NCBI GenBank assembly: GCA_002633005.1
Contig: NMRA01000045.1
Span: 923,552 to 987,551, forward strand
Source: Phoronis australis
Taxonomy: Eukaryota; Animalia; Phoronida
Length of the DNA: 64,000 bases
Direction of reading: 5' to 3'
Positions 1 through 58,900 of this stretch are shown one piece after another (the stretch's first letter is position 1; each line of letters begins with the position of its first letter). Below the pieces are notes generated by a model. The model had not been told where the DNA came from, did not search any database, and saw nothing but the letters and a program-made list of their open reading frames with translations. A program made the translations under genes and the position numbers.

Positions 1-773
1 TAAAACCAGCTGAATATTCATAGTGTTCCGTTTATTTGCCCCCTGATATGTAATATCGTGCTTAGAGCTGAAAATAATTTCAAAGTGATGTACCTAGATA
101 CTAATAAAAATGAACTAAAATACGGAATGTATAACTTTGGGGTGGACATTTAGCAGACGGACTATGGTATGAAAAATCAAGACAAAAACTGACAATAGGA
201 TATGACAATGTTTCTTGATAAATGGCCCCATTGTGGCATTAATGCTTTTGATAACAGTGGTGGCAATTGTGTTATTCCTTCTGCTTAGGGATAGGGTGCC
301 AGATGATCTCTGACCATGGTCAGATATAGTCCCACTGGGCCACTAAAGGGATTATCATTCCTTGTCAACTGGCAACATCAAGTTTAATGCGATTATCCTG
401 GGGCAGTGGATTGGAGAAGTGTATTTTGTATACAATTATCCAGTGGTTGTCACTGTCTGACTGAACTGTCTGACTGGTTCTTGTTTACTGCTGCCACTGC
501 AGAAACTGGAGCCCTGCAATTGCTCCTCGTTTTGCTGTGTTATAATATAGCATTACAGTCATTTTACTTGATCTAGGAGGGTTGATACAACATAGCTGAC
601 TGATGAGTGGTTTCCTTTGTTTAATTCTATTGTGAATGGGTCGTTGCTGATGACTTCTGTCTACAACACAGACAGTGTAGTTGGCTAATCCTGTGTGCTT
701 GACTGTGGATCACTGCAGAAAGATCCGGACTTGGAGATAGGATTTTTCAGCCTGTTAAGTCTACCTGTCGAAA

Positions 774-1937
774 ATGGGGTGTACTTGTTCAAAGCAATCA
801 ACTCGTAGGAGTACAAGTAAACAGGAAAAGGTGTCTGGAGAAAATGTCTCTGAAGTCGTTTCTATTGAGGAGGCGGCATGTGATAAGAGGATGGGTGACA
901 AGCTGGAACGCTTGGAGACTGATATATGTGGAAATAAGATGAGAAATGAGGCGAAGGATGGCTTAGGCAACAAGGAGATTTCACTGAATGTGGACGATGT
1001 TAGGGCAGTCTATGTCAAATGTTTGCCAGACACAGATGTGAGTCCTGAGATAGAATGCTGTGGGAGTACACTGTCGAATAGCTTGGAGACAGTGTGCCTT
1101 TTGAATGACAACTGTGAGGGTAGTCAGCATGAACTAAATGAGTTGTCTTCACAGAATGATATTTGCTACGCCAGTGTTCATCAATGTCCCAATATTTCAA
1201 CTGAAGAGTCGTGCAGTTCAGGTCATAATGGACAATATATGCCCCCATTTGCAGCCTGTGAGATATCAGAACAGAGTGCTAAGTTCACGGTGCCCCCGTC
1301 AATAACGTTCTCTCTGGTTGGCTACGAGAGCGGGAACGGCAACCTTGTGGCGACTGCCAGTGTCAACCCAGTTGTGTATGCGTCTCTACCAGTAGTCATT
1401 ACCGTCTCTACCAACAGTACTGATAAAGATGAAGATGAAAAAGGAGAAATGGTTGGCCAGTGCCAAGCACCCCAGAATAATGGAGTTGATATTACTACTG
1501 ATAACAACGAGGAAATCGGAGACAATAACCCGATGGATTACAAACTGAATTCACTAACATGGGATGTTTCTGCTGATGATGTTACCAGCACAACCTATGT
1601 AATCACGGAAACTGACTTGAGCTTTAATGTTGATTTGCACAATTTTGATGCTCCGCCAATACAGGGCATTTTGAAAACTAGGGCTCAGTCATCAAATTTT
1701 GCAAGACCAAAGAAGCGTGTTAGTTTCCCCGATGTTTTGGAAGATGTCGTCTGTATCGATACCCTCTCTGTGGGATCGATGTACGAAGAGGAGGATATTG
1801 GTGGTGTCATGGCCAATGGCAGCCATATTTGTGGCAGCCATGTTGATTGGAAAGATGCGTTAAGGTATTGGCAGTTAGACGGTTGTCCAGATCTGGATCG
1901 TGGGGTTGGTGACAGTTACCTGTGTCCTCGTCATCAG
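774..1937 (+). CDS. Candidate alternative first coding exon (388 codons): N-myristoylation/palmitoylation signal plus SILK-type and RVxF PP1-docking motifs
   Basis: aaaATGG start with in-frame TAA at 756-758; begins MGCTCSK; GILK at 1665-1676; KRVSF at 1713-1727; reads CPRHQ then CAG|GTAGTG donor at 1938 (phase 0), matching the phase-0 ACIDDN exon. The ORF continues unspliced to 2198. Confidence 0.7.
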
Positions 1938-4900
1938 GTAGTGTTTGATGATCTTGTTTCTGCTCTTGTTCTAAGTGTGTGTTCTATAACTAGGTGTTGT
2001 TATGATGCCCAGAACACATCAATATTTCAAGTTGAGTGCCTATCATGGGATCTTCGCATTCCCAGTTGGCGCGTGGCTAGGTCAGCGCTATTCAGTTGTG
2101 TGTCTGGTGTGTTTTGCATCATTTTAATGGAGGTTCGTGCAGTTTTGTTCATTTCTGCTGGATTCACATGGTCCCTTGTACATCTGGGACTCATTTAGCA
2201 CCCTCTTTGGAGGAAATTTTCACTTAGAAAAATACTATACCGTAATGAAACTAACATACTGAAGTTTCACTCACACTACAAAGTTCCACAGTTCGATTCT
2301 GTGGTTGTTCATTCATGCGTCCCTTCAAACAAGCCGGTAATTTCGCTATGGGGCCTTTCATTCTGCTATGAGCGGAGTGTTGATGTAAACTATGAAGTTA
2401 ATCGAATCGTTCATATTAGTTTCGGCAGTTAATGGCGTCGAAGTAAACGGTAGGTGATGCTGTCTTCATTGAAATAATCGCAAGGTAGTACCAATATATC
2501 CCGTGCACGTTAAATTTTTTTAAGCTGACAATTTGAGAACATTTAAGTAGTGTACTAATCAACATAAAACTTCTTTCTAGTTCGATTGATGACTATTCGA
2601 GCAAAATATATAAGCAACTATTAGTGGCGACACTGTCCTATAATTGTTGACGATAGCAGTGGCCTATAGTGATAACTACGATGAAACCAAAGTTGACCTT
2701 CATACCACTCCGCAGCGTCGATGCTCCGCTGTTAAATCCACCTGTTTACTGGGAAGTTAACTGGCGCTGTTAACTTCGATCCAGGAGACCGAAGTTAACC
2801 TTCATACTGAGCACAACTCTCCAAAACATGGAAGCGTTGACCTTAGTACAAAAGGGTCTCATAGTGTTGGATGCAGGTTTTACTGCATGGTCTGATGTTG
2901 CCATTTACCATGAATGTTTATTGTGTACAATTGTGTTGACTTTAGTGCCTTTGTGTGAACCCTTGGCTAAGATTATCTATTTATGTGGGAAAGGTGTTAT
3001 ATGTACTACAATGGATGTTCATGTCTCACTTCTTGGATCATGGTTGAAGTGTGTTTGTTCAGACTAGGCTGTGATGAACCTTACCTGTGGAAATGCTAGG
3101 TCCCTCAAAACTGGTATCGCCATGCATTACAACCGTTGCTTGTGATCGTACCAGCTTTTCTCGCAAGCGTCTTGGGTCCATGGAATATAGCACTGGTGGC
3201 AATGTAGTTGGCATTTGGGATGTTGACATTTTACTTAGTGATGATTTCTTTTATGGGAGTCATGTATGTTGTCATACACATGAAGTAGTTGTGTCTAGTG
3301 CTAATATTTGTTGCTTACAGAAAGGTTTTGTATAGCATGATCTATTCTTTAAATATAACTCATTGAATTTATGTGATGATGTGTGGCAGTGACGATGATG
3401 ATATGGTAATGATGTTCAGAAAAGTGAAATATCTTCTGAACAATGCCCACTCTTTTGTATATGTACACATGTGCTAAGTCTACACGATACACGGTGTCAA
3501 CAGTTCTTAACAACTCGCCATCTTGCAAAATGTTTCAAAGACAAAACAAAACAAAATAAAATCTGAATTTTAAAGCTCCTGTACATATCATACTCTGTGC
3601 AATTTCTTTAAGAGAGCTCCCCCATGAATTTACATATATGTTATACTGATGCTTGAGTTGTTTTGAGAATTGGTGCAGCTTCATTTCATCTGTCAAGAAA
3701 TTTGTAATTTCCCCACATCATATATCGTGACCGAGTGCATATGGTAATCATCTGAGTTTGATATATGTGATCTTTTTGTAGGCATGCATCGATGATAACC
3801 TGGACATGGTGGAGTTTCTAATAGAAAATGGTGCTGACATAGACGTGTGTGACAACGAGGGTTGGACGCCTCTCCACGCTACTGCCTCGTGTGGTTACTG
3901 TGAAATAGCCAGGTAAGCTTGATCAGCATCCACTTGTGTGAGTAGAATGCAGTTCCACTGTCTCATCCTTAAAGTGGCAGGTGACCTCTTTAAGGGGATC
4001 CGTCTGATCAGCCGTGTGATGATCTGGTCACGAGTCCACCGACAGATCTGCCTTCTTATTATTAAGATGCTGATGACACAATTCGTGATTACATTCTCTT
4101 TAGTTGTAGTGATACACGGGATTGCCCAAAATATTTGCATTTGGCATTTGACTATTAGGCCAAGCATTGTGCCAAATGCTGAAACTGGTGATTGGTTCAA
4201 ATTCGGTAGTGAATGCTGCATTTGACAGTTATCCTTGAAGCTGCTAGGTGTAAAGTTCACAATAGGTATATGTAGTGTAACGGTACATTCTTCTTGGTTC
4301 AGACTACATTTTCACGTGTTCGGGTCATGAAGTTGTTGTTCACTGGAAACATGAAGTAATTTACGGTAGTAGTGAAACATTTCCTGTCAATCCTGTCCTG
4401 TATGATTGCCAGAACAGCGGCTGTTACCTTTGTCCACCATTTGCAGGTTTCTCCTTGAATATGGTGCCAACGCTGCCGCCGTCAACAATGATGGTGACCT
4501 TGCTATTGATCTCGCAACCGAAAATGATATGGAAGAACTTCTGGCTGAATACATGGAAAAACAGCGTGAGTATCTGGCCCTGTGTGTCGTGCCCAAGGGG
4601 TCTCATCTTGAACGAGTTGGCGCTACTGCAATAGTCTCGGGGGTCTTAACCTTTAGAACCATTTTGATGCCTGTTATTCATTGGAGAAAACTGGTTCTTA
4701 AATCTGGGACCCTGTATGTGTCATATCAGCGCTCACACAGAAATTGTTAATGCTCGCATATAAAAGAGATTGATTGGAAAGTGCTGGCAAATGTATGTGT
4801 TTTCGGCAGTTTAGATATTGTTTTAGATGAGTGTTTAAGGTTTGTGGTATTGGTGATCCCATATCGGTGCTGTTTTGACTCTTTTTCCATCTCTGGTATC

Positions 4901-7900
4901 ATTTTAGGTTGGTCAGTGGCTTTGCTTTGGTAGTCATTTTCCCCAGTAGGCTATGTATTGCAGTGGTCCAATTTTCAAATGTTAGACAGCACCTCTCTAC
5001 CCAGTATGTGGAAGATGGTTGTTGAATAATGATTTTTGGTCCTAAATCATAGATTTTATTATCTGTGTGTACAGTTTTATACTGACTGAACTGCCTAGCC
5101 TATATAAGCGCTAGGATAATTATTTTTATGGCAAATTTTAGTATTTTGTAAAATAAAGTTGACCCTTATGTTGAGAGGAACAGACAAAAATTGGACAGTC
5201 GGCCAAAAGTCAAGTAAATGAACATTTCTAGCATGAGTTACCATAGTAAACAGTGATAAGTGTTTGCTATGCAGCACCATTACACGTGTGGTGTGTAAGA
5301 CCATCTGTACACCAACAGAATCATTAAACATTGCATACGGTTATCTTGTATCTCAAAATGCAAATAAGGCCGGTAAAGTTAGTGATAGCTGGGTCCACGT
5401 TCACCTTAAGCAAAAGGTGTCTGTCTTTTGAGGAGTTTCTCCATGATTTTTGTTACATTAAACGTAGAATATAAAAGCGAATACTCTAGATTGAGGTACT
5501 CTGGAAGCCGTTGGCTAGTAGGCATACTAACTATTAAGAGTTCTACAACATGGTGTTTTGTCTAGAATGCTGCTGTAGTTGTTATACTTTGCTGGAACAA
5601 TTTTCAATGTTACATTTTCAACTAGGGCTGAATTGGAACCTTTTGTGTACTTGTCTTCTGGTCATTAACCATAATTTCCACCCTTCCAGACGCACAAAAA
5701 TACAGTGGGAATTCCCCGATGTTAATGTTTGCCAAGACGGGAATTCTGTGGTAAAGTCAGTATAACAATTTCCCTACACAGAATTAAGTGTTAAAAACAA
5801 CTAATTCAGCATTTCTGCTGTATTTTTAGTGGACAAAAAGTACACTTGCCTTATACATTCATCCCATTTTTCCTCTTCTGCAGAAATTGATGCCGACTCG
5901 GCACGCAATGAGGAAGAGAACCGCATGCTGGCTGATGCCAACCAATGGCTGAATAATCGCAACGTACGCGAGAAGCCACACCCCAAGACCGGTGCGACGG
6001 CACTTCACGTGGCTGCTGCCAAGGGATACCTGAAAGTGATGCAGTAAGTCGTTAAGACCTCAGACTTTTTTCAAAAGCTGCACAAACGCGTGCAAGCAAG
6101 GTTTTAAATGCTGTGGCTTGCCAAGTTGGCCATAATGACAAATGGCCACCAGTTACTCTCCTTCTCTCACCCACGCACCACGAGTGCCTTCAGCCCCAGG
6201 GAAATGTAAATTGTACCTCTGGTGCTGGCGTGGGTGTTTCTTTTCTTGATCTCGCCTGGTTCAGTCATGCCAGACCATAACACAGATGTTCTGTCCTGGG
6301 AACAGTGCCTCCTTTGTGATGTTTTGTTAGCCTTTCTTCCCTGTCTGTTTATTCTTGACATTAGCAAACAAATGGCATAAAATCAACACTCAAAGTCTGT
6401 AGCCCTGAATTCCTCTTGCGGGCTGTGATTAGGAAGGTTGAACACTGAAATAAGATTAATGTATAGTGGCATCAGCTCTAATCCGAGCCCTTTTATGTTA
6501 TACACTTTTACGTCACAATCCTTGATCTCCCAGCTTATTGTGGCTGGTTGGTTACTAATTCTGTTGGTCATATCTTTTATGCCAGATTACCATAGTACTA
6601 CTCAATGCATGAGACATGACATCTTGTCCTACTGGCCTCCCATTTCCATGATGGTTTGAGTGTAAATTTTGGGTACGAAAAGCAACAACTCTCAATTTCT
6701 GAAAAAAGTCCTTGAGATTTCTTTCATTTATTTCCTATGTGGCTCAAATTTGATGCATAAAGCTCCCCTTTTGAGAAATTGCAACAAAAGTTTGAATACG
6801 TCTTAACGCAAATGATGGATGCAGGGTTATGCCAGATTCAGTTCAGGAGTGGGTTAAGCGCTACTTGACATAATATGCCCTGTAGTGGGTTAGGAGTCTC
6901 TCAAAAGAGACTGCTGGAGGTGATAGAAATAGCTTACTGTTATTTTGTGAGCCAGTTGGTCATCTGATGTTACCCTTCAGGCTGAGAACTGGCACTGGTT
7001 TACATAAGGGATTATAAAGTTTATGGTTTATGACGTCCAGAACCAGAAATTAAAACGAGTGACGTTGTGTGCCTGGCACACAGTTTCTAGCACTTCTCAA
7101 GTGGCAATGCGTCTAAGTAAACCTGGTGTTTGTTTATTAGCCATTATTTTCTTGTGGAAAGTAAAGAATGGATTTAAAAGGTGCGTTTATGTCCATTCTC
7201 TTCTCGAGTTCAATCCGTCTTCATGTAAGGTCAGCCTCGCACTTAAAAAGTTATTTTTTGTTTTATTTTTGGACTGAGGCATGTATTGAACAGTGGTGAG
7301 ACCCGAGTTTGACTCATATGTTCACTGGTAGATATAAAGTGTTGAGGTCCATCTGGAAAGTAGTTGTGAGATTACCTTCATTATAAATAATTTAATTTAA
7401 AAACCCTGTTTTCTTTTTAAACTGATGTGAAGTGAATGAAGCCATGTATATCAAAAAGTTTTGCACGCACGCACACACACACACACTTGTTCTAACCATT
7501 TCTGATAGTAGTCACAATGTGAAGTATACCTTTTCGCTACATGTCATTGGAGTAGCTGGGGGACAACATTCAACGCCCCCTACAGACTACCCCTGTAATA
7601 TTGGAAATTTATGGCAGTGTGTTTTTTAGCATCGTTTTAAATTCTTTGCCATCATCATGCCACTGTCAAATTACCACTGTCAAATCACCACTGTGGTGTA
7701 GTGAGATATTCAAATAGTCTACTTCAAGTGTCCACCATTGCAATATGTCCGTGAACAAAAGAAATAGTGTAACAGTTTTGTCTTTGCCAGCGCAGCCCGA
7801 CTTGCTCACCAAAGTTTGAAATTAGGTCAATGGAAAGTCGCTTTGACTTGTATATCGGATGTTCTATACAAGGAAGTGCTATTAGGAGCTGTCTGTTTCA

Positions 7901-10900
7901 CAGCTGTATAGTCTTTACTAGCCAGACTTAGGTGTGCACCTGTTGTGGGAAAAGTGCTATTGTTGCATTGTTCTTGTAATGAGTTTGTTCTGTAATCTGC
8001 ACTTGACATTCCAAACCACACTGTGTCTCATTCAGATAGAAGGGACTGACTACCTTTAGGCAGTTGGTCATCTGACTGTGGTTCAAATTTCAGTTGTCAT
8101 ATGAATTGTTACTTTAACTTTAGTTTGTACTCTGGCGGTTTGAAAAGGAATCATTCAGCATACAGCTCTTTAGCATTGTGAAAGCATACTTTACCCAGGT
8201 GTGCAAGACGGTAGGAGTTGACAGGAACAAAACGGAATTTCTTTCGTTCATTTGAATGTCTCACTGCGCAGCTGTGGCAATTTGACTGTATGATGGTCCC
8301 AAAGAATTCATAAAAAACGTTGCATTCAAGAATTGCAGAATACTGTCCACTATCATATGGCCATGTTTAAAGGTGTATTTCATCTGCTGACGTTGCAGCT
8401 ATTTCATTGCTGTGACTGCTGGTGCATACTGGCGGGTACTTTGAATTTTGTNTAGTAGGTAGGGATGTCATATCATATCTAAAATCCAGACCAGCGCAAT
8501 ACCTGAGCACTTGGAAAAGGTGTACCTGAAATGACATAAATTCATGACATACCACATTCAGTTCATCTTTGTGTTCTTTCTAAGTCATAGTACCCTCTCT
8601 GTTGATTTATTTTGTTCTTATTCTGTTGTCACATGTAAGACAATGAACAAGATTATACTAAGATGTCAGAAATTTTGGGCACAATATGGCAGACGTAATA
8701 AATTACATTTTTTCATATTTTCCATTAAAGGAACTTGGCAGGAAAAGTAATTTTCCAAAATCAGGCTCAACATGGAGCCTAAACTTGGAACCCCCGTAGT
8801 CTTAGTTCTATGTGCTCTGCTGGTGAAGCTAAATCCCAGTCGATAAATGGTAGAGTATTTTAAGCATTGTTAACTGGTGAAATCACCAGCCTTCATTACA
8901 AGGAATGTCTGGAAGACAAGAGCGACAATAGGCCATTTGTAGTAAAATCATAAAAACTCTACGGATTTTGTTGTTTTATAATTCTGGTCAAAGCAGTTAA
9001 TGTCTAGAAGTCAATCCTATCCCATAGCAATCCCAAAACTGCATTTTCTGCCAAGAAACCAAATGTGTTTCTTTTAAGTAAGTATGACCAAAGTTAGTTA
9101 CACACAATAGCTACCATTAAACAGCGTTTTATTAATGGGCACTCATGTCTATGTTAGATGCCTTTTAAAAGGAAGAAAGTCAATTTTGACTTTTATAAAA
9201 ATTTCTCAAAATTTTCCCATCCCTTTGTTCCATCTGATTCGTGGACATTGCTGAGTGCATGTTGCATTCGCTGTTTCTGCTTGCTGTTTAGTCAATGTCA
9301 ATATCTATCTCCTGCTGTGAAAGGAAAACTAGGTTATGCCATCTGGTGTTGATTTTGTTGGGAAGCCATGGTGCCTGGCTGAATGTAATATGAAAACAAA
9401 TACACCATGCATTAGTGGGTGGTAATCTATATTGAATAATAAACTATGACAACAGTGGGGGGTCAGCCCACCAGGACAGAATCATTAATAGTTTGTTCTG
9501 CCAACAGATTTTGCTATGCTAAAAGTATGTTTTTATCCATTTTGCTGATTACTGCAGCAACAATTAAACTTCGAGCCTAGTCACACTGAGCTCAGATTGT
9601 GCAAACTGTCTTAACATCTTGATAAAATGGACAGGAGATGGGAGAAGACTGGTAACTTTGACATTTGCCCACAGTGCAGAACTTAAAGCTGGTCCCACAA
9701 AAAAATTTCTTGCTTGTTTTCAAGGCTGTTATTAGGGCTATGCTAGTGTGCCAGGGCTGTTAAGTTCTGTACAGAAACTGACACAGGCTCTGCGGTTATT
9801 GAGGCCAAAAGCGATCCTTAAACCTTTTGCCTTGTAAGAGTAAGCAAAAATTTACATCAAAACATTTAACATACATATTTTAGAACAATCCATAAGATTT
9901 TCAAAACATGCCAACAGTAAACCCAATAGTATGCCCATGAGTGTACAGTTGGAAAATTTTCCAAAAATATGTCTATAGGTTGGGCGTGGGCCTATTTTCG
10001 GAAAGTCGCGGTTGTTGTTGAATTGGACTTGAAAATTGCTACCTCTGTGTATTGCTAATGCCATGTGTCAACTCTATCAAGTGTTGCAGTCACATATTGT
10101 TACACTGAAGTGAGTGCCAATGAAGGATTTTGGTTGCACTTAATATTCTGTGGCACTGAATTCATTCTGTTCATCCTTAAATTTTCATTGGCATGCATGA
10201 TACATTTTCTGTCCCTTTTTCCAGGATTTTACTTATGGCAGGCGTAGATATAGAAGCCAAAGACACTGACGGCTGGACGCCACTACACGCCGCTGCTCAC
10301 TGGGGCGAAGAAGAGGCCTGTAAACTACTAGTAGAGAACATGTGTAATATGGAGGCTAGGAATTATAGTGTAAGTACTGGCACCTATTGGTCAATGTTGG
10401 AACCAGGAGTTGTGCTTATGGTGCCACATGGTGGAGTGGGTTTATGAAGTACTAGTGAAGAATATGCAATACAGAACCAGGAATTAAAGTGTAAGTACTG
10501 GCACCTATTGGTCAATGGGGCAGCTGAGACTATGTATGTGCTGCCACATGGTGGTCAATGGTTGAAGAGTCATTGCACATGTATAGTCACATGATGGCTG
10601 GTGATTAAACTTGGGATTGCCTGATGAAGTCAGCAGATCAGGGATTGCTTGCTAGTCATTCCTTAACAAGTGAAATCGAGTAATCCCTAAGCCTATGATA
10701 TTCTTTGTGTATATTCCATTAATTAAAAGAGGTTGCATATTCAAATTTGTTGAATACAAAGATGACTAATTTGAGTTGCTTGACTGTAGAGAATTTTAGT
10801 TGTTGGAATATCTACTAAAGGAATGAACAATGCGAACCTGTAAAAAATGCATTCAGTGTCCTGTTATTGCAACTATTGTTTTTCAGGGTCAAACCTGTTT

Positions 10901-19900: not shown

Positions 19901-22900
19901 GGAAGAGGCAGAGATGATGGACAAGAAGTATGCGGAGGAGCGGAACAAAGCCGAGAGGGAGCGCGTCTCTCTCAAGGAGGAGCAGAAACAAAAAGAAACG
20001 GACAAGGAGGTCGCTGACGAGGTAAGTGTCTCTTGGTTAATGTCTCAGTCGTTTCGCCCTGTGTTTACTGTCGGAGTCGTTTTTTGTGAGGTAAGTAGGT
20101 TTGAGGTTTGTTGTTGTTGTTGCTGTTGATGTTCTGGTGCATGCTGTCAAACACACTTCACATACAGTACATTCCATAAGTAGTCCGATAAAATGACCCA
20201 GAATTTCCTGTCGTGACAATTGGAGGGAGGTTGAGTTCATTGTCTGAGTAGTCTCCCCTTGTAATTGAAAAAGAAGGTGAATTGACTTAACCATGCTATA
20301 AAAACAATTTTGCTACCACGTTAATTGTTACCTTCATTTTTGCTATTAACAGAATTGGCTGTTGTGACAGGGAAACTGCATTTTGTCTGATAACTTTTGT
20401 TGTGTAGTTTATGTGTAAATTAAGTGCTTCTTATGCACTGAAACGCGAAATCACTTTCATTATGACCCAAATATGCCAACGTTATTTTTCAACCAACAGT
20501 AGTATTCAAAGAAATTTTTATGAGAGGATATGTTTCCAGTATTTAAACAAAACGATAGATACAGGAAGACCTAAAGCAACCGATTTCTGGACAGTTTATT
20601 ATGTTCTGGTCAAATTCATGTACTAGTCAGCGAGGGATTTTCTGAAAGTTCATGACTAGTGCATACAGATCCCAAGTGCGAGTTTGTTACACAACAGTTT
20701 GGTGTCCTAGTGTCGTCCTGTTTATGGTGCGCTGGTCCTGCTCTGCTTATTGTCAATGTGAGAAAACTGCTTTTAATGTGATTTGCTCAACGTGCCAATT
20801 TAACTTGAGAGACGGGTCATTTTAGTTTTACCTTTTGTATTTGTTTATTTACGCAATGTCATTTGCTTCTCGTGTTAAAAAATTTCAGAAATTTATTGAA
20901 ACATTGTTCAATTTTTTTTGTAAATATTCAAGTATCCTGCAAACTTTTAGGGTCGTGTGAAATTTTAGTTATCGAAACTTCTCAAAGTGAATTATTTCCT
21001 GATATCTTGTGATCCTTGCCCTCCCCCCACTTTTTCTTTATTTACTCATGGACTTTTAGTTGATTTGAGTTCTAATAAAAATTTCTCCCCACTCCTACAA
21101 GACCACCTAAATAGAATTTGTTTCCATGGTGGTTGTTGTTCTCAGTTTAGAATTCTAACCATAGCTTGAGTGTTGTTGCTGTTGTTCTGGGTGTTGTTAA
21201 CTCTCAGCAATTCGGGGCTTGCTTGCTATGGTACTGGCTGTCTCGTGTTCACACTGGCAAAAATAGGGCTTTAAACTTGAGCAACGAATTCCAAAGCTTG
21301 AGACAGCTTGCCGTGCTAAAAACTCCTGAACAAGTCTATAGTATCTTGAGACGTAAACATTGCAAAAATTGTTGTTGGATACGTTTCTAGTCAAAAGTTG
21401 AAACTCTGTTCTCACCTGCTACAGTTTGCAGTCTGTACAATACAATACAATACAATAATAACACAGATGCTCTAAATCAACTGCATTTTGACTCCATCGC
21501 ACAGTCTTTCAGATCACCAAATCAACTCCATCACACATTTCCAAATTTTCGCACTTGCAAACACTTGCTATTCGCCTACAGCAAATCGCCAGTCGCTTTG
21601 TGCCTGTGAGCAGGCTAGCCTCGTCTCGCTATTGCTATCTCTGCTTTCTTAAGGATCCTCAGGAACCAGCTGTCAGTAACGAGGTACCTGCCAAGGAGCC
21701 CCTGCATAGGACAGCGAGTCTGCCTGCCAGGCTTAGCAGACAGGTAAGATAAGTAATGAGACCTCGCTCTCTCTCCCAACTCAACTCTTTGCTGTCATAA
21801 CAATCGTTCACTCACTTAGTTGTGGTGGTGCTGTTGGTTGTGGTGTTGAGAATTATACAGGAGTTAATTGTCACCTGATTGTCTTGCCAAGTTTTTGTCG
21901 TGGGAAGTGTTTTTAAATGCCCATTATTTGTCTTTGTCTCGTATCATGGGCCGTCTAAAGTTCATTCACTGTTGGACATTTTGGTCTGAAGCGAGACCAT
22001 AGTAATTGTAAATGTTGCTCCCTGCACATTTGGTAATGTCAAGACTATTGCAAACGTGGTGCTCATTCGTATGTTGTTGTTGTTGTTTATGATGTGGGTG
22101 TGATCAAATGCACTTCACAAGTGAATTGTTCTTCATGAACTGAGTCTAAATATGCCTGTCATAGAAATAAGTCTGTGCAGAGCTTGTATGTTGTATCTAA
22201 CTTGCAGTATGCTCACCATAGAATATTTGATGCGTGCGTATGTGTGTGTGTGTGTGTGTAATATGTTGCTAAAAGTACCTAAAGGTGCAAATCAGTTTCA
22301 AAGTGTTAGACAATGTACCAAAGGGTTGTGCAATGGTTTGTACCTGTTGAGCATGCTGTGTTATTTGCAACTAATCCGTCAACAGATTGCTATTGTTCGT
22401 TACCAAGTTGGTCTTTACTAATACCAAGTGTCCATAATTGGTTTTACACTGCTTATCCACGTAAAAACTTTTCAAAAAATAGTTTGAAAACAAAAGTTCT
22501 GGCAACTTGACCAGGGGACATAATTACTCAGAATGTCACGAAGTACTGAAGACGGTCAGCTCTTTCACTTTTGACGTTCAAACAACTTGTTTATCGTGCT
22601 CCATCACTCACTCGGCATACTTAAAATGTCCACTGTTTTTAATCATTGGCTCGGCAGTCGTAAAATTACGTTGTTGCACTTGTCAGTTGTTTGTTGGTTG
22701 GTTTGCTATGTTACCGCATGCTTCATTGTCCCACTGCTAGGCGCCCAACTACAGTCCGCGGCCACTGTCATCAAGGATTGAGTCAAACGCCGGGCCTTCA
22801 TCATGGCGCGCTGGTCTCAGGAAAGCAGGTAGCTCCAGTGCCGTTCCTGACACCGCCCCGCTGCGTAAGATCGGTGAGGAACGCGTGCAGAAGTCAGCCT

Positions 22901-25900
22901 CCAGTCCGTGGCTGGCTCCGGAATTGAAATCCGAGGATGTAAGTTAGAGACCCACGCCGTCTTGTGTTATTGGGGTGAATCAATATTACAAGTAAAAGAA
23001 AAATGAAATCTGCCTGAGGTAGAATTGTAATTGACTGCTGCACCTCTGTGCCTTATTGAGAAACCAGATTAAGTTGTGGATGTACATACGTAGGCAAATG
23101 ACTGCATTGCTTTCACTCACATATACTTCTACTTGCCATGGTTCCGTGTGTAAGAGTCGATGAGCATTGTTTGTGGCATGCAGTGCATGTGGTAACTATT
23201 GTGTGAGACAAAATTGGTGACATCAAAGAACTGATTGTTTGGTGTACGAGTCTCAAAGTGATCATCCATTCACAAGACGGTGAGGTTCATTCAATTTCTG
23301 TGGCATAGTATCTTAAGATTACAACTGCTTACTGTTTGATGAGCTCCGCTGTCGAGTGTTTAGAGTTATTCCGACGGGGTTGGTGTTTGCTCGGTACGTA
23401 TGAGTGAAATGCTTTGTTGCCGTTGCCTGTGTGTAAGTAACATGCTACTATATTAGTGTCTTGAAATCAACACCATGTACTGCAGCTTTTATGCCATGTC
23501 ATTGAGCTGTGTTCAATGACAACATTTAGCTTTCCTTAGGTAGCTGTTGTAGCCAAACAGCCTGCAGGTATGGCCTGCCTGTTCTCTGGGGACTTTGCTG
23601 CATACCTTAATTTGCTATTTTTGTCCCACAGGGTACAATATAGTATATTCAGGATAAGTTGCAGTGTATTTATTCATTATTCAAATTCCTTCAACACTTG
23701 GTAGTTTAAGGTAAGTATTCAGATCTCCATCCAACTATGCGGCAGGCTGTGTTTTGGTGTACAAATGTGAAAGAGTGCCTTTGTTTGTTTCAGACTCAAG
23801 AGCGATCATATCGTAGGCAGTATCTTAGCTCAACTAGTTCGGTGCCGGAGAATCCGCCGGAGAATCCACCAGAAATCACTACGCGAAATAGGTAAGTTTG
23901 TCCTGGAATGCAGCCTTCCGCCATATGTTTTCAGCGTTGTGTTTGGATAGGAATGGAGAATTTCTGTATCCCCATTTTGTTTTTACTGCTCGGGAGTAAC
24001 ACTTCTAGGCCTGGGGTCTAATGTTTTTATTCGAGATAAAACTCAAAATTATTTTTGGCATTTTCCATTGTGCTTTCCTGCAGACTCAATTTGCGTGGCT
24101 ATTCTATGCTTGAGAACACTACTGGATCCCAGCACCTGGTAATTCTTCATCCAGTTAGCACACAGTGTGTCAGAGAAGTGAAGTTACTGTATTTTGTCAA
24201 AATAGACTACAACAATAAACAAGCCGGACAACTTTAGCTTGTTCTTAGCTTGGTTTGTATTGTGCAGGTGTCATAAAACAACGATTTGTTAAGTTTCCAT
24301 TATTTGAAGCTAGGCAGTCAACCTTTAAAAATATTGAAATTAATGCCTGGCAAATATTTTGGTGTGAAATTTGTGAAGAATTACTGTAAATCTGTGCTGT
24401 GTTGGCAGCGTCATAGTTGGAATGCATTGATTCTACACGTAGTTTTCATCAGATGGTCTTCTTGTAGAGCTCAGTTGTTATTTTCGCGTTATCAGTTCAA
24501 TCCTTTTAGAGCGTGGCAAAGCAATTTAACAGCTTGTTTATGTCTTGCTTGACTGTAAAATCCAGTATAGAATGACTGCGCAAGGAAATTTGATATCAAG
24601 TCGCCATGCCAGCAAATCCTGTGCATAAGGCTCTAAAACTGGGTACCTTGTGGGCATCCGTGATTCAACCTCTTTGAACACATAGTTACAAGTTTCTCCG
24701 AACTCACACTCAGTTTTGATTGGGACTCAAAATTTAACCAATGATTCAAGAACAGTTTTGCAAGTTTACTCCATGCGTAACACGCATTTAGTGAATTGTT
24801 AAATTTCCTGTACAGAGATTACTCCTCTACTCCTGGTCTCTGTGTAAGGTGTTCACCCAAAAGTTGCCCGTTTCATTTAAGGGATTACCGACTTTTTTGG
24901 ATCTGACCCCATCATTTCCCCACTGGGTACTGGGTCTGGGTGTTCAGCCGAATTGCAATTGAAGTTTGTATCCAACCACACCAATACAGTTTGTTGGTCT
25001 CGGTCGAAAACTTTATTATCTGAAGAACTTTTGAGTGAAAAAATTTGGTTTATGTGCATGCTACGTACACGCTTATTACTGTCTAGCTACTCATGGGTGT
25101 TGCCACACTGTGTATAATGCGTTGAGCTGTTAATCCATGGTACCGGATCAGTTCTCGTGTCTGCCTGGTGTGTGTGTAATTGTTGCAAAACTGCTTTCAT
25201 GTTATGGGCAAATCTAGGCTTCACTAAGAATATTCTCACATTCGTTTGACGTTGTTTGTAGGTGCTTACATTTATGACCTACGTTTCTCTGGTGAATATT
25301 CTATTGAGCATCTAGGTTCGATTCCACGATGGGTTTGAATTAAGAGCTTTTCATGCCATCAATGTTCCTTCCATTGGTGGGACGCTTTACTAAAACATGT
25401 TACTCTTGAAAAACATAGTCTTAGTATGGCCTCTTAGATCCACTGGCGCATTTTGGTGTGTGAATGTTTCAGTACTCGATTACTAAAAACGTTTGGTTAC
25501 TGACATAGCATGAGTCATTTGCATGTGTTGTAGGAATACCTATCCATACTTGTCACGTGTTCAGACCAGTAGTTCGACCGGCGCCGCCGGGTCTTCAGTG
25601 CAATCGGAGTATGTCCCTTACTCGCGGCGTCGTCAGGAGCGAGAGGCGGAGCGTGAGAAGGAGAGGTTAAACGCCGGAACTGCATTGGGCACAACTTCTG
25701 TGTCCTTTAGAAGGTGACGCGTACTGTTAATCATTTTAGGCAGAAGTAGGAGTGGAAATATTAGGAGAGTGGTTTTATGATATTGTGCACTGTTGCCAAT
25801 TGTACCTACTGTTGCAGTATTTGTTTGGATTAATGTCCAGGATGTGTGCATTGAAAATCTCATTTTAAGAGTTGGGTGTTTAACGGAACAAGGGCTTAAG

Positions 25901-40900: not shown

Positions 40901-43900
40901 GATTCCTTTCAATAACCACGTGACACGTGATACACACCACCATGTCCTATGGTGGGTACGGTAACCGCTACGGTGGCTCTAGCCCCATCTACGGCAGTAG
41001 TTCTAGCAACCCTTACAGCAGCAGCTCTGGCACCCCCTACGGCAGTAGCTCAGGGGCCCCCTACGGCAGCACCAGTGGTTACTCCAGTCTGGCCAGTCCT
41101 TCCTACAGCTCGTCCAACCTGGCCTCGAGTCCCTCTTACCTGAGCAGCCCCTCGTACACCTATGGGGGTTCTGCCTTCTCTCCTGGCCCCTATAGCATGC
41201 CACCGGCCAGCCCTAGCTACCACTCGCGCTCTGGCTCCACCAGCAGTCTCTCCAGCATTGGAAGTGCCTCAAGTCTGGCTAGTGTAAGTACTGTACTCTT
41301 TAGACCTCTCTTGAACAATTGGAAAGCAAGGGTAGACTCTCCTTATCTTTTCAAGAAGTTAATATGTGTGCTGTTTTGTATCTATGGCAGGTCAAGTTAG
41401 ACTCTCCTTCATTATATTTGTAACATTGGGCATTCTTTATTTGTATCTGGAGTCCTTGTTGTCGTGGAAAACCACAAATGTTTTGTGGCTAAGTTTTGTG
41501 AGGTGGGTTGGGGTGTTGTGCTGTGGTAACAGTGGATGAAGGCTGATTATTTTGACATTAAGTTAATTAAGATGGCTCATCCAGATAATTTCATTAAGCT
41601 GAAACGTCAAGGTATGCTCATATCAAATATAGGAGAAAAGTTCCATGGTGTATGAGGGTTGGATTGGAAAACAACTGTTTTTTCATGCTATGGTAAAGTC
41701 TCGCCAATTTCGGACAAAAATGATTTCCAAAATCATTTTTTTTCCAAATGCTTCCAGCATTGTTTTCAATACTCACGATTTCTAAGAATCTTTGTTTGAT
41801 GATACGTCATTTATTTGGTGCTACTCATCTCTTAGTGAATATATGGAAAAATGAAATTTCACCCGTTCGTCATATTGCATCTTAAATTGGTAAGATTTTA
41901 CCGTATCTTTTCTCAGATCTACTATCCATGCACGTAAGAGTGGCACAAATTTCCCAGCAAGATTCCTGCATTTCAATTCTGCATTCAATTCTATTGAGCT
42001 AACGCAGTGTCTGACTGGCTACAGTCTGTTTCGAACAATCGTGTTTGGTTATGCGTTTATGCGCCATTTTTGAACCTGCAGTTTTGGGGTGGGCCTTACC
42101 CTTGAAATGTGTTACGTCAGTGGCCCTATGATAGTAAGAAATGTTATGAGACCCATGACAGTAAAAGGCTCAATTCAATTTTCACTTGTTAGCCAGCTAA
42201 ACGGAGTAAAATATAGCATTTATAAGTTGTGTTAGCTTTAGTAAAAATTCTCCAGTTATCACTGTGAAAATTTAAACGTTATGTTATTCAAGGTTGAAAC
42301 TTGCACCAAACTTTAGAAAAAATCAATATTGGCCTTCTCAAATTCAAGAAATACATTAAATGGCAAACGATCATTCACTTCTGTTTTACATACACACTAA
42401 GGGGATGGTTGTAAATGTTGCGCTGGTGGCTACTGTATATTTCACCGATTTTATGAACTGGCAAGTCTAGCTTCAGACTCTGTTGATGCAAAAGGAAGTG
42501 TCCGATATTTGAGAAATATGAGCGCCAAAATCGCCTATGTCCCAACGCTCAGAATCAAGAAAATTCAGTTTCGACTTGAATTTGGGTGTCTCAAAATTAA
42601 AAGACTTTCGCGAACTGGAAAATTTTTACGTCACAATAAGTCAATATTTAGTTGAAGATTTCATCCCTCTCATTGGTCTCTTTTTGTTCTGATACACATG
42701 ACATAAATTGTTTGTCATTTAGAGACAAACAAAACACTGCGAACTTAACCATGCCTCCCCCAGGTCCCAAAGGGCTAGACAATAAAGTGATAACAGCTGA
42801 AGGATAGACTAGAGTTATATCTAGATTTGACTGTCATATGGAATTGAAGGGGAGGGTTTTTGTAGTGTATAACCAGTTAACATATTCATAGGCTGTGTGG
42901 GCAGAGTCATTGCAAAGTTCCCCAGCTTAAATGTCTGCCAGTCAATTATGTTGTGTGTGTTTAGCTGTTTAAGTGAGGTAGGTCTTTTCTCCTTCCTACA
43001 TTAAAACTACTTACTGCACTCCATGGTCCACTAATGGTCAAGGGCTCAGTTCAAGTGCCATTTCACACTTGGAGGGGTTTTTAGAATACTGCCGCCTCAT
43101 AGCTGTTAAGGAAAATCTATAATGCTCTGGCAGGTTCTGTGAAAAATCGAGACATATAGGTCTTGGAATGCTTCAACGTATGAATATGAAAGTATAAGTT
43201 AGAGTGAAAGGGTAGTTGTGACTGTGACTGGCTCGAGGTAAAATCTCTAGAATGAGAGTTGTGACTTGCGGGTATTGAATAGTTAACCAGCTGATAGATG
43301 ATACTGAAATAATTCCAAAGTTTTGGAGTTGAAATATCGTTCGTAAGAAGCCTGCCTAAAGTGAGAGCTCACTATTGGACGAGAGTGTGCGCTCGTTTCA
43401 GAAAACAAATAAAAGGCCTCTATAATTAATATAAAGTAAGCTTACACTATTAAACTTAATTATTTATTTCTGTACCAAATTTACTGTAGTTTCCTCCAAC
43501 AATCTTGTCTTGCATACTTTGTGTACTTCCAAGGTACACCGCTTAGAATCGTTGTTGTTCTAGCCTTGAAACTTAGAGGGTCACATTGGGCGACATCTTG
43601 TATTCCGAAATGAACCACCTATCTTGAAGAATGATAGCACTTGCATACTAAGAGTTATTCATGAAGCCAGTGCTCAGGGTACTCGCAAACATCCACCTTA
43701 TTGAACATACTTATTGTATGAATAGTTGTTATCATGTGAATTATGTCGTAAGCTGAAGCTGTAGTATTTCTACCTGTTGTGTTTAAAATAGCCCTTATTT
43801 CAAAAATTTCTGTGACACAAGTTTGCACTTAATTAGGAACCCAATTCATTGGTCATGGTAAATTCCTGAATTCTGTCTCACCCCCCTAGTTGTAAGTGGA

Positions 43901-52900: not shown

Positions 52901-55900
52901 TCCCCGCAATGTACGTGTGAAGATGCTGTCTGAATCTTGGTCAAATTTATTTTGAAAGTTGTTATGCATGCCGTCGCAACTGCACAGCCCTTCATCCCAA
53001 CTGTGTTGATTTTCATGAAGACTTTGGCTTATGTTGCATCTTGCTGGAGCTTCCCTTGTGTTCTTTCAGCCAATGGAATCGTTAAAACTGGACAACGCTA
53101 AGTTAGTAGAAGAGAACCACACCCTTTTATGCGAAATAGACAAATTGTCAAAACCATAGGTAAAACTGAAATCGAAATCCAGGTACTCACCAAGCAAGCA
53201 TAGGGCATGCTCTGACCTCTGACCTACTGGTTCATTGGTGGTTTATCATTTGGCATTGGCGTATGCAGTAGGGAATACCTGCAGACCTACAGTCAAAGGG
53301 ACATTCAGTGCTTACGGAGTGCTGTACATTTATAGCTTGATGGCATTGCAGTCACTATAAACTAAAGCAGCTTGCCTTCAGATGTGTCAATATTTGAGAA
53401 AAGCGACCAATTAGGAAATAAGCTCTTAGTAGTCTTTTTATGTTGTTTTTCAATGAAAAAAAAATAAAAGCAATACAGAGAATATCAACTTAATGTTAAA
53501 CTCTTGTTTGATTTCCATCTCTTTAGCTCCTGGGTTGTCATAGTTGGATACAAATTGGGCTTTGCATGGCTGATAATATGCAGGCAGGCGGCTTTTGGCA
53601 AATAATTGAGCATGTACACACACTAGATGTGTCGTTGTGGAACTGTGCCATGTTGTTTCCATCACCCGGTTTTCTTGTTTGCCAAAACCTGAAGGTAGAC
53701 AGTTTTCCTTTCTCGCACTATGCAGGCATTCTCATCATGTTTGCTTCTCGTGCGTACAGTCCTTTTTTCACCAGCTGTAGTTTAGTCATGAGCTGCAGTT
53801 CTTTTCACTCTCTTTCACTTTCTGTCAGACAGGAAGCATGAGCAAGCATGCTTGTTGCAGGGTATCAAACCTGTCTCTGACTACATACTTCAACTCAGTG
53901 GTGTTTATGGGAAACCGTAGTGCGTGATAAGAAATAGAAATCGTAAGGATGGAATGCCCCAGCTTTCCATAAGGGATATGGATGATCTCCCTTGAACCAC
54001 TCGTTGTGCAATTTCCGAGTTTATTCATTATTCAAGAGCTTACTGAACATCCTTTTTGTGCTCCCACATATACATGTATGTGAGTGTACACTGCCGTCAT
54101 CTTTCTCTGGATATCCGAGCATCGGGCGTCCACTGCCGTTATCTCCTAAACCCCTCGCACAATCTTAATGAGATTTTGGCACATGAGTTCCTATGAAGTT
54201 TATTATTACAGATGGCAACATGTTTCAGACTAATCCGACTACTGCTATGCCCTCTAGTGGCAGATAGGTTTCTATTAAGAAGATGACGATGCCATTGTTT
54301 TTTCGGAGGGCTTCAACATATTTATGTTGTCTTGTGGCCATTTTTGTTATTTTTGAGTCCCATTTTCTGGCATCCGGCTCTTTATACACCAAAGCGGTCA
54401 AAAGATCACCTTGAAAATTTGCAGATATGTTCCTGATGAGAAGACATATGGCTGACGTTGATTTTCGGATGGACTTGACTTCTACGTCACCCCCTAGTGG
54501 TGATATTGTGCATCCGCACCCATATCTTCTTAACTCTTTGAAGGAGCTTTGTGAAATTTGGCAGATGCGTTCTTATGGAGCTGGCGACAGGTGATGACGA
54601 GTTTCGGACTGATCCATATACCGCTGTGCCTCCTAGTGGCCAGTTTTGTTTTGTGTTTGCCTGTGTATCTTCGGAATTCATCTATGGATTTTCATGAAAT
54701 TTGGCAAATAGGTTTCTACTAATGAGATGAAGATTTCTTTCCATTTTCACATGGATTCAACTTATTTGCACTACCTAATGGCAAATCGCTCAAAGGATTA
54801 TGAAAATTGGCAGACATGTTCCATGGTTTACAATTTTTGGACAGGTTCAAATGCTATGACGCCCCCTAATGTCAATTTTTTGCATTTTGTGGCTGTATCT
54901 CCTTAATCCTTTGTAGGATCTTTTTCAAATTTTGGCAAGTGTTTTGATTTGAATGTGACCATGGCTTTTCAATGACAACCACTGTGCCCCTTAGCAGAAT
55001 TTTAGTTTTTACTTATGCCTTTGTATCTTCAGAGTTCCTTCATGAAATTTGGTGATAGGTTTAAGTTTTGGAGACGATAGCACCATTCCATTTTGGACAG
55101 ATTTGACATGTTCTGCACCATCTAGTGGCCATTTTTATTATTTTTAGTCTTGATTTTGTCGTCTGTCTCTGTATTTGCGGAAGTGCTTTGAGGATCATCA
55201 TGAAAATTGACAATTTTTTTGCCCTGACTGATAATTTTCAGACTAGTCCAACTACTTAGGTGTTCGCAACTGGCATTTCTTGCATCTGTGACTGTTTCCC
55301 CTGAGCTCCGTGCAAGATCTTTGTTAAATTTGGCAAATGTATTCCCATTAACTTGACAACAAATGAACAGATACAATTACGGCTCTGCCTCCTAGTGGAA
55401 TGTGATTTTACTTTAGTTGCCACTGTGTCTTTTAACTTTCTCGATGGATTTTTATAAAATATTGCAAATAATTTTCTATTAGGGAGACAACGATGCCTTC
55501 CAATTTTCAGACAGGTTTGTTATATCCTGCGCCTTATTTTTATGATAATTAACACAGTCCCCCTAGAAACTTGTTGTTTGCGGTGCAGTCGTGGGCACAT
55601 TTCAGTGCTTTGCATTGCGCTCGTTACTTCAGGTAGTTGGTATGTTTTATAAAGTTTCACCCGTGGCATCTCATTCATTTGTCTCAGTCTGTGATTGGTT
55701 ACTTGTTTAATGGTCTTAATGTTGCCCTTGTTCCAATGCTCTGTCTTAGCCTCCTGATTTTCGTGTGTAGTTGTGTTTCTTAAAGGAGGTGATTACGTTC
55801 CAGCACCTGTTCAGTGTCCAGTATTTCCCACTGTTACCTGTTGTCACTGCCAGTTGGTAGGGTGTATTCAGCCTCATCTTGATTCCGTGTGCATTTTCTC

Positions 55901-55994: not shown

Positions 55995-58900
55995 ACCACC
56001 ACATGGACGTCGTCGATGAACCTTTGGTGCTAGCTAAAAATCACGGAGCTGAATATCGGCTCTTCCCGTCTTCCAGATCCCCCCTCTCGTCAATTGCCCC
56101 ATCCCCGTCATTTTCCGCTGAGTCTCTTTGAATTTTTGACCCTGTTAATATGGAAGCTATCTCTGTTTATGTTAATTCCTCTAAATGTCACAAAAACGTA
56201 AGTACAAAGGCCAAGTGTTTCATAATCTGCGTTGCTACATTCAGGTAAATCCTTGATCGATTGTTACTGTCATCCAGTCAGTGTGGTTTGCAGTTTTGCT
56301 CATCATTAGTAGACACTATTTCTCAGTCAGAGCAGCACCTTGGTTATTTACCTGTGCAAGAACATATAGATCTCAGTATTGTGAGCGTAACTTTTTGACA
56401 GGGACTCAATGAACAGTGACGCAACAAATGGGTCAGAACCCAATAAATGTTTACACAGGTATAGTTGTCACAGTAGCCGTCAGGGTGTGAACATGACGAT
56501 ACTGAGGCCGTCTTGGTTCAAATGGATACTTTGAATTTCACTAGGTTGTGTTAGTGAAACAGCAGTCCTTCCAGTACAAACGGATACATTCAGGTGTACT
56601 GTGGGACACTCGGGCCACAAATGCCCCTGTGCTGGTAAATGTATTTCAATTGTCATTCTATTCAAACTAGAATATGGGGACTTGTACTACATTAGCGCCA
56701 CCTGGTGAATATCAAATCTCCCTTAGTTCAATGTCATCCCCACCTCAGTCCTGCTTTTCCCAGAGATCCTGGATTTTCCACTGTAACGGAAAACGGAGAA
56801 TTCGTGAAATCTTGAGTTCTTTCACCAAATTAGAAGTTCTGAATAGAATTCTAATATTTAAGTAGGAGATACTTTTTGATTAATAATTATTAAAAATTAC
56901 AAATATCCATCAAGTTTCAAAATTCTAGCAGCAGATCAATCGAGTTGTGCATTTTCTCTGAAGGTGGCGCTCCTCTTTTCCCGGTTTAGAGAAGCAGTGA
57001 ACATAGCCTGAAGCATACTATTTTGTAAAATGGAGCTGCAGCATAATTCAGCTTATTTATCACTTTGAAATAATAACGTAAACATTCTCCTATTTGGTAC
57101 AGTCTCAAGAATTTGGAACACAAAAATTCACCTAGAAATTGATTTTATTTTGATTTTGGAGATTTGAATTTAGGCAATTTTGGCATTCATCATATTTGGA
57201 TGCTGTGTTTTGTATCAGTTGACTTGGCAAACTAGCGAAAATAGTGTCAACACAACATTTTCAGGTGTCCTGGTGTTGCATTAAGTCGAGGTGCATACAT
57301 AATGGGATGGGCAATATTGCTTATTTCTGAAATTGGTATAGCTCCAACTTTGGGCAAAGTAATTAATTTTCACTGCCTCAAACTGAAGATTTTTATGGTA
57401 AAATGGAATTCCTTTTTTGAAGAATGGAACTGTACATTTGCTATAACCGTTTTCTCCGTTTGAAAAATGGAAAATCAGGGTCTTTGCTTCTTGTCCAGCT
57501 CTTGTGCAATGAGTCAGCCATCTTCCTTTCCCCTTCCATCTCTTTATAAACCAGTAAGATCCACGTACATTCTCACATATCATGAGAGTTTGGAGAACTA
57601 AATGACCATTCCCGGCTTCCTCTAGTTCCCGGAGAATATGTTTGGCTTGTACTGCGGGGCTGCCCTCTGTGGGTGGCTCCCAATGTTTTACTTGTAATTG
57701 CGGTCTGGTTAACTAGGTATAGAGCATTGTATACTGGCCCAGTGCTGGGAACCAGTGATAAGTAAGGCAGTTGAGTGGTAGATTTGTAAGTTACGGAGTT
57801 GTGTTGACGTCACCCCGGTGGTGTTTACTCTGCCTTCTTGTAAATGCTTTGAGCCCCCAGTTGTCTGTCAGCATTGGAATCAAGAGTTTGATTCAATGTC
57901 AGAGTTCCGACTTTGTGTGGACATTTTGAATTTGTAATCGACGGGTTGTTTTAGTTTATGTCGACCTAATGTTACGCTGTACCAACTGAATTTTGGCCCA
58001 TAATTAGGAAGCTGACTTTTGTTCGACTAACCTGTGTTAAAACCTACGTGTAAAATTCGGTGAATCAGATGTTAGCTTAAAGGGATGCGGACCCTCAAGG
58101 AACCATCTCTTATTTGTAATTTTTCTGGCCTCTCCTGTGGCAGCGAGATTTTTTTGCCAGTCTCCATAGTCATTTAGTATAGTTTTGGATTCAGTATTTA
58201 ATTGACAATTATACAGTTTTTGACAGTTGGTGACCCACCAGTCACTCCATGGCTAGCTTGTCTAGCAGGCCAACGCCACTGCCATCCTAGCAGGCCACTG
58301 CCATTCTAGCAGCCTCCTTCCAACAGCTGACTCGCTCCTAGGGAATTATTGGGGGACGATGTGTGTTTTCATGGTAACAGTTCACTACAACTTATGTATT
58401 TATTACGCACCCAGTTAAGTAAGTGCGCGGCAGATTATGCTGTTGCAGCGAATTATGTTTGGTTGTTTTTCTTGTTTATTTTTGATACTCGTTTATTTTG
58501 GGTCGGGAAGACCCGGTATTGGTTGGCGTCGTTTAACTGCTCTCATCCTCATCACAGATACGTGTAGGTCATTGCGTCACTTTGCAGGAAGCCTGTTAGT
58601 GGAGGACCGGTGGTCATCTGGACCAGGGGTCATCTGGACCAGGGGTCATCGCTGCAGTCTAGATTAGATCTCATCGCTGTCATGTCATTTCTTCGTCATT
58701 CTCTTTTTTGTTGGTGCCGTGTAAATATTTCCATCTTGATTTTTAAATTGTAATATATGTGTACTGTTTTTATTGAGGGGCTTGTTTCTGTGGCTGAGAC
58801 CCTCCAGGTGTACGAGGGGGCTATTTTTACAGCTAGTAGCTAGGCAAAGTCACTTGTTAAACATTTGATATTTATATTTTATCCTTGTTATTGTTGCTAT

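Follow-up and report, generated by a model that had tools for sequence, protein, structure and literature searches.

What is a long open reading frame (ORF) with its own PP1-docking motifs doing just upstream of the second exon of a MYPT gene? The ORF lies in intron 1 of that gene, on its sense strand, which is the forward strand of a 64,000-nucleotide stretch of Phoronis australis DNA (the window, to which all positions refer). It had been proposed, in what we call the original prediction, that its first 388 codons are an alternative first exon, which replaces the canonical N-terminus and makes a lipid-anchored MYPT with another mode of PP1 docking. Here we show that the ORF is real, that it is of coding type and that its motifs for PP1 docking and acylation form a coherent set. 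It probably serves as an alternative start of the gene that is seldom used, or else gives a product that stands alone. The word 'exon' for 774-1937 is an interpretation; the confirmed part is the ORF, with a site that may be a donor.

The host gene and its canonical first exon

Overlapping MYPT queries (12 + 6, by tblastn) located the N-terminal ankyrin repeats, the RRSTQ inhibitory site and the C-terminal leucine zipper, in that order. The gene is of the MYPT1/PPP1R12 type; the part inside the window begins with exon 2 (3782), exon 1 being absent, and extends to two leucine-zipper exons. The exons of interest are as follows.

3782-3912, forward strand: MYPT exon 2 (ACIDDN...), whose splice partner in RNA is canonical exon 1 upstream of the window
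4447-4565, forward strand: MYPT exon 3, with spliced reads
5884-6043, forward strand: MYPT exon 4, from which the gene runs on to the leucine-zipper exons
53070-53159 and 55909-55994, forward strand: a pair of related terminal exons for the leucine zipper, both with a stop of their own (MESLKLDN... and MELLKQDN...)

Transcripts were followed in three raw stranded RNA runs of one study (X1, X2 and X3), with about 18% of each run used; a fourth dataset, a contig set under the same species label (X4), matched repeats only. Spliced reads join exons 2 and 3 (11 + 8 reads) and exons 3 and 4 (19 + 24 + 2 reads), and in X3 the gene is hardly expressed. Every loose end 5' of exon 2 (15 in X1, 22 in X2) reads the canonical exon-1 end (agreement 1), which is N-V-D-G-L-T-A-L-H-Q joined to 3782. 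These 37 reads bear out the expectation that canonical exon 1 is located outside the window, upstream, and ends in TALHQ joined to ACIDDN. Within exon 2, reads of X1 and X2 differ from the assembly (C>T at 3844, T>A at 3871), so the RNA comes from alleles other than the assembly's.

The rest of the gene has features of its own. The zipper exons at 53070 and 55909 are alternative exons, and both match C-termini of MYPT proteins from molluscs, Lingula and Lamellibrachia. For the non-ankyrin exon at 22741-22935 the best matches, among the proteins tried, are in Lingula (59%) and Lamellibrachia (48%), which indicates a lophotrochozoan gene. The 39 bases at 10358-10396, where the exon at 10226-10369 ends and its GTAAGT donor follows, recur at 10479-10517 (97%), a possible second donor 121 bases downstream. 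At 40924-41397 there is a 158-codon Ser/Tyr/Gly/Pro-rich frame that starts MSYGGYGNRY and has no Pfam match, possibly a further exon or the place where a short C-terminal (M20-like) product starts internally. Behind the gene, 58850-59810 is GC-rich (56%) and holds several frames of 110-165 codons on both strands, with no Pfam family above the cut-off.

An open reading frame with acylation and PP1-docking motifs

The features of the ORF upstream of exon 2 are the following.

756-758, forward strand: in-frame TAA 5' of the start codon, read from the sequence
774-2198, forward strand: full ORF, 474 aa, for which neither a Pfam family nor a homologue was found
774-1937, forward strand: candidate first coding exon of an alternative form, 388 codons long and ending in phase 0, with no splice to 3782 observed
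774-791, forward strand: MGCTCS, predicted signal for N-myristoylation (G2, S6) and palmitoylation (C3, C5), from the sequence and the acylation consensus
1665-1676, forward strand: GILK, SILK-type PP1 docking motif (aa 298-301)
1710-1727, forward strand: KKRVSF, RVxF motif with a basic N-flank and an acidic C-flank (aa 313-318)

The frame opens at ATG 774 in a strong start context (AAAATGG), begins with MGCTCSK and terminates in a TAG at 2196-2198, giving 474 aa. As the in-frame TAA lies upstream, Met1 is the first ATG of the frame. The stop-free run measures 479 codons. By comparison, the longest frame was 145-237 codons when the window was Markov-shuffled 15 times and at most 249 codons when the region was shuffled 500 times. 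Codon periodicity along 774-1937 gives a chi2 of 11-37 in eight slices. There is no second copy of the ORF within the window. Most of the protein appears disordered; a single-sequence fold of aa 281-474 has a mean pLDDT of 43, with the last helix alone confident, and says nothing on coding.

At its true start the ORF carries the MG-C-x-x-S/T pattern of dually acylated (Src-family-type) proteins, and MGCxx[ST] arises in 0.05% of shuffles. RVSF (aa 315-318) is separated from GILK by 13 residues, and [GS]IL[RK] N-terminal to an RVxF motif with basic and acidic flanks is, judged by sequence, the pattern of SILK+RVxF interactors. This agrees with the published rules: SILK sits N-terminal to RVxF, whose flanks are basic and then acidic (PMC3792071), and phosphorylation of the SILK and RVSF motifs of KNL1 blocks PP1 binding (PMC6406801). 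The serine of the RVxF motif, Ser317, is predicted to act as a phospho-off switch. The SILK+RVxF pair by itself occurs in 3.4e-4 (0.034%) of shuffles, and the trio of a loose myristoylation pattern followed by [GS]IL[RK]...RVxF in 2e-5 of 50,000 shuffles. The anatomy given in the original prediction was correct throughout, from the in-frame stop, the ATG and the spacing of the motifs to the phase-0 end in CPRHQ.

Relatives of the ORF

The 388-aa query found no homologue among 5234 candidate proteins of 680-2000 aa. The whole ORF had no match in metagenomes, viral contigs or Pfam (E up to 1 or 0.1), and no mobile-element or viral protein match appeared in Pfam, viral contigs or representative proteins. 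An atlas search gave a best value of 0.77 for the exon and nothing for aa 281-474. The single match of aa 281-388 among 1.84 billion representatives, an unnamed tandem-repeat sequence, was judged spurious.

Among MYPT proteins the N-terminus is uniform. The exon-2 segment is present in 186 of 305 proteins from the MYPT searches (a set to which the best 120 of 1936 exon-2 matches and the best 120 of 320 long-isoform matches contribute, 100 of the 120 long-isoform matches listed being other ankyrin proteins), and the canonical end precedes exon 2 in 186 of 186, none with an MG start; the 186 come from a smaller number of species, with many isoforms among them, and the match ranking favours canonical starts. 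P0174 and P0218, long MYPT models that lack exon 2, stand outside the count of 186, and RefSeq isoforms named X1 from seven molluscs group with the canonical forms. In Penaeus, MYPT models have an additional exon-2-like ankyrin segment, which suggests that exon 2 is duplicated there.

Conservation of the motifs in orthologous introns, on which the original prediction set store, was likewise not seen. Intron 1 is visible as a whole in 13 of 37 metagenome MYPT loci (seven of them exceeding 800 bases; L038-L040, non-MYPT or weak matches, were excluded), and none of the 13 has such an ORF or an H-Q/GT end; tblastn of the ORF against 40 loci gave no match. As the MYPT loci and proteins compared include no close relative, and the ORF is mostly disordered, only lineage restriction follows. 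The open-access literature yielded no acylated or SILK-bearing MYPT start.

An ORF without homologues, with coverage near background and with repeats nearby at 2440-2820, might be a non-functional or mobile relic, that is, an undecayed retrocopy or a captured or transposon-derived ORF with background transcription. This is quite improbable in our judgement: Pfam, viral contigs and representative proteins gave no match, the window contains no second copy, and reads at 90% likeness reveal no well-expressed parent in these samples. Furthermore, the frame is intact, the start context is strong and the motifs are coherent.

The candidate donor at 1937 and the missing splice

Does the ORF lead into MYPT? 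The candidate exon ends in CPRHQ at the following site, in which a slash marks the boundary.

1932-1943, forward strand: CATCAG/GTAGTG, His-Gln end and moderately weak donor (5.3 bits)

The donor phase, 0, is compatible with the acceptor TAG/GCATGC at 3781/3782 (ACIDDN). The last six bases before the donor, CATCAG, are identical to the last six of canonical exon 1; by our own post hoc estimate, the chance of such an in-phase match is roughly 1-3%. On a generic scoring matrix the donor falls just under the range of seven homology- or read-supported donors (5.5-11.9 bits), and it carries G at +4 and T at +5. It ranks sixth of the 120 GT sites in the ORF and is the top scorer among the 19 phase-0 GT sites 3' of RVSF.

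It had also been suggested that the end of the exon is a decayed copy of the exon-1 ankyrin half-repeat, and this found little backing. A profile of 61 distinct canonical N-termini scored 0.4 bits against the ORF, with 96 of 1000 shuffles equal or better, and end-anchored alignments to canonical exon 1 were borderline (12/300 and 25/500 shuffles, p about 0.04-0.05). That the ORF might be a decayed duplicate of canonical exon 1 is not shown by these comparisons. The AG at 750 was also considered as an acceptor for canonical exon 1 and rejected, the frame being wrong.

Splicing from 1937 to 3782 had been named beforehand as a test, and its outcome went against the original prediction. None of the 37 reads entering exon 2 in X1 and X2 shows this joint (joints were listed only with at least three reads); depth over 1402-1937 is zero in all three runs, so no 1937-to-3782 read is present. 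The alternative form makes up less than about 8% of spliced transcripts in X1 and X2 together (upper 95% bound). The missing splice and the missing conservation are both observations of limited power, coming from three samples of one study at about 18% per run and from comparisons that include no close relative. What stands of the alternative first exon is a real ORF with a phase-0 donor that scores best of 19 GT sites; its splice and its conservation were unseen. By inference, we give a spliced isoform in some tissue a slightly better than even chance.

A possible read-through extension

Beyond the donor the frame stays open, and this read-through to 2198 was given too little weight in the earlier interpretation.

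1938-2198, forward strand: read-through extension of 86 codons, poor in A and with a hydrophobic helix at its end (aa 432-473, predicted membrane segment)

Eighty-six open codons beyond a site are found at 244 of 42,635 intron positions and in 273 of 20,000 shuffles (0.6-1.4% by chance), and the longest frame beyond 11 other donors, in any frame, is 60 codons, none reaching 86. Only 1 of 2133 intron windows is likewise A-poor, a property that is not independent of the open frame; the A-poor segment spans 1717-2209, and its boundary falls at the stop, not at the donor. The C-terminus of the extension has a hydropathy of about 2.0 and forms one long helix in a single-sequence model. Codon periodicity was not found in the extension (chi2 7.8; 90 of 338 intron windows as high).

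These properties bear on the plainest form of the original prediction, a tissue-restricted alternative first exon in which the frame past 1937 is accidental intron and unspliced reads are pre-mRNA. The phase, the donor rank, the His-Gln end, the motif logic and the aperiodic extension all suit such an exon. There is also a precedent, since human PPP1R12A has a testis-only promoter in intron 1 whose transcript is spliced to exon 2 (PMC9367544). However, this reading must leave to chance both the 86 open codons past the donor and a composition boundary at the stop, and it has neither a junction read (0/37) nor exon-shaped coverage in its favour. We consider it improbable.

Unspliced RNA and a candidate poly(A) site

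Sparse sense reads, with coverage gaps, extend over about 770-3600, and the intron holds one candidate end for them.

3555-3560, forward strand: AATAAA, candidate intronic poly(A) site, the sole such hexamer in 1938-3781

The unspliced sense reads lie at about 770-1004, 1981-2106 and 3010-3277 in X1, and at 946-1321 and 2876-3600 (the latter at 2-4x) in X2; these positions come from bin arithmetic on about 14 fragments and are not a unique solution. No sense reads occur in 1-731 (p about 0.03) or in 3948-4349 of intron 2, and there are next to none at 4831-5880. In X2 the intronic reads fade at about 3571-3600, just beyond the AATAAA, an observation that rests on two or three reads; 3' of the hexamer come a CA near 3585-3590 and then a U/GU-rich tract. 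The first read lies near 770, and no start pile-up, end pile-up or TATA match was found near the ORF. Coverage is 0.26x and 0.45x over the candidate exon, 2.8x over the intron behind it in X2 and about 15x over exon 2.

These reads fit a weak transcript, unspliced, that would run from near 770 to the candidate intronic poly(A) site; retained canonical intron 1 with a 3' bias, or a short RNA driven by the repeat at 2440-2820, would fit them as well. The X2 reads at 2876-3600, on the sense strand alone, begin beside this repeat, and the RNA there may be 3' UTR or a short repeat-driven RNA. Both 2440-2820 and 4655-4702 are dispersed repeats with many both-strand reads at 90-95% identity and with loose ends. 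Rfam gave no matches.

Is the ORF then simply a gene within a gene? A same-strand, single-exon nested gene (774-2198, 3' end near 3580), never spliced to MYPT, is what the RNA looks like, with no junction in 37 reads, a fragment near 1981-2106 past the donor and the AATAAA at 3555. The open, A-poor, hydrophobic extension and the lack of such a start among the 186 MYPT proteins agree with it, and the H-Q may, speculatively, be part of a C-x11-C-x2-H pattern and no imitation of an ankyrin end. However, it would then be a coincidence that a SILK+RVxF protein sits inside the gene of a PP1 regulator, and another that it contains an intact, in-phase CATCAG/GT identical to the end of canonical exon 1; the aperiodic extension is a further difficulty. 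Such a solitary gene, of independent origin or descended from an alternative exon, would encode a 474-aa acylated, C-terminally membrane-anchored PP1 interactor, and we regard it as rather unlikely.

A possible composite first exon

A lineage-restricted composite first exon with its own internal promoter, giving either a spliced lipid-anchored MYPT or a 474-aa read-through PP1 anchor, explains both of these coincidences together with the open extension and the unspliced reads. It is therefore the reading that we favour, tentatively and at somewhat less than an even chance. A SILK+RVxF pair stands 1.8 kb upstream of exon 2, whose normal partner brings an RVxF motif, and the phase-0 donor, best of 19, has the same CATCAG as canonical exon 1. 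The read-through half accounts for 86 open codons, A-poor to the stop and ending in a hydrophobic helix, and a transcript of its own for sense reads that are absent from 1-731, begin at about 770 and fade past the AATAAA. The testis-only intron-1 promoter of human PPP1R12A again serves as precedent (PMC9367544). Against it stand the 0/37 spliced reads and a candidate exon covered less than the intron behind it and exon 2. The unspliced reads are few, could have other origins and include no listed start or end pile-up. Furthermore, the extension lacks codon periodicity, neither a homologue nor an orthologous exon was found, positions +4 and +5 of the donor are G and T, and two outputs are less parsimonious than either half.

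How would the composite exon work? Transcription would start just upstream of 770, at an internal promoter. Splicing at 1937 would produce a MYPT whose first 388 residues substitute for exon 1; reading on past the donor, with polyadenylation in the intron near 3580, would produce a stand-alone 474-aa protein. Both products would be tethered to membranes by myristoylation of Gly2 and palmitoylation of Cys3/5, PP1 would dock at GILK and KKRVSF instead of MyPhoNE and KVxF, and phosphorylation of Ser317 would release it. The spliced form would retain the downstream ankyrin repeats, the RRSTQ inhibitory site and the leucine zipper, without MyPhoNE and the first ankyrin repeat, H-Q capping the second; it may be made solely in an unsampled tissue, the human precedent being testis. 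The read-through form would be a doubly anchored PP1 sink at the membrane, without myosin targeting.

Comparison with known systems

The closest parallel is human PPP1R12A, where exon E1+ (promoter P2, delta-N MYPT1) is described as non-coding and its product as losing PP1 binding (PMC9367544). Like P2/E1+, the start proposed here would be internal to the gene and rarely used, lying within intron 1 and so ahead of exon 2. Unlike E1+, it would bring 388 coding codons that restore RVxF and add GILK and an acylation signal, with the splice unobserved here. With the canonical first exon of MYPT1/PPP1R12 (MyPhoNE, KVxF and ankyrin 1) the candidate shares an RVxF-type motif, a phase-0 donor and a His-Gln end; it differs in having no MyPhoNE, an F-to-Q distance of 70 rather than about 41 residues, about 300 extra residues and no profile similarity.

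The predicted docking resembles that of KNL1, which has [GS]ILK shortly N-terminal to an RVSF with a phosphorylatable Ser (PMC6406801). However, the ORF has no other KNL1 feature. Consortin-like tail-anchored PP1 interactors have a long acidic disordered region, a SILK-type and then an RVxF motif, and a C-terminal hydrophobic segment. The read-through form has the same layout, by analogy alone and without a Pfam match; were the ORF stand-alone only, it would be an orphan lineage-specific PP1 interactor.

Membrane-bound relatives of MYPT are known in MYPT3/TIMAP (PPP1R16A/B), which are encoded by separate genes and use C-terminal prenylation. The spliced form, if it exists, would like them be a membrane-tethered ankyrin PP1 regulator, but through predicted N-terminal acylation and on a MYPT1-type gene; with prenylation and protein binding, this would make three ways of holding a MYPT at the membrane. 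The N-terminus of MYPT1 is remarkably constant (canonical in 186 of 186 proteins among the matches listed). If the composite exon is real, one MYPT1-type locus would swap its whole PP1-docking module by promoter choice, and would test the share of the first exon in myosin phosphatase specificity and PP1 isoform choice.
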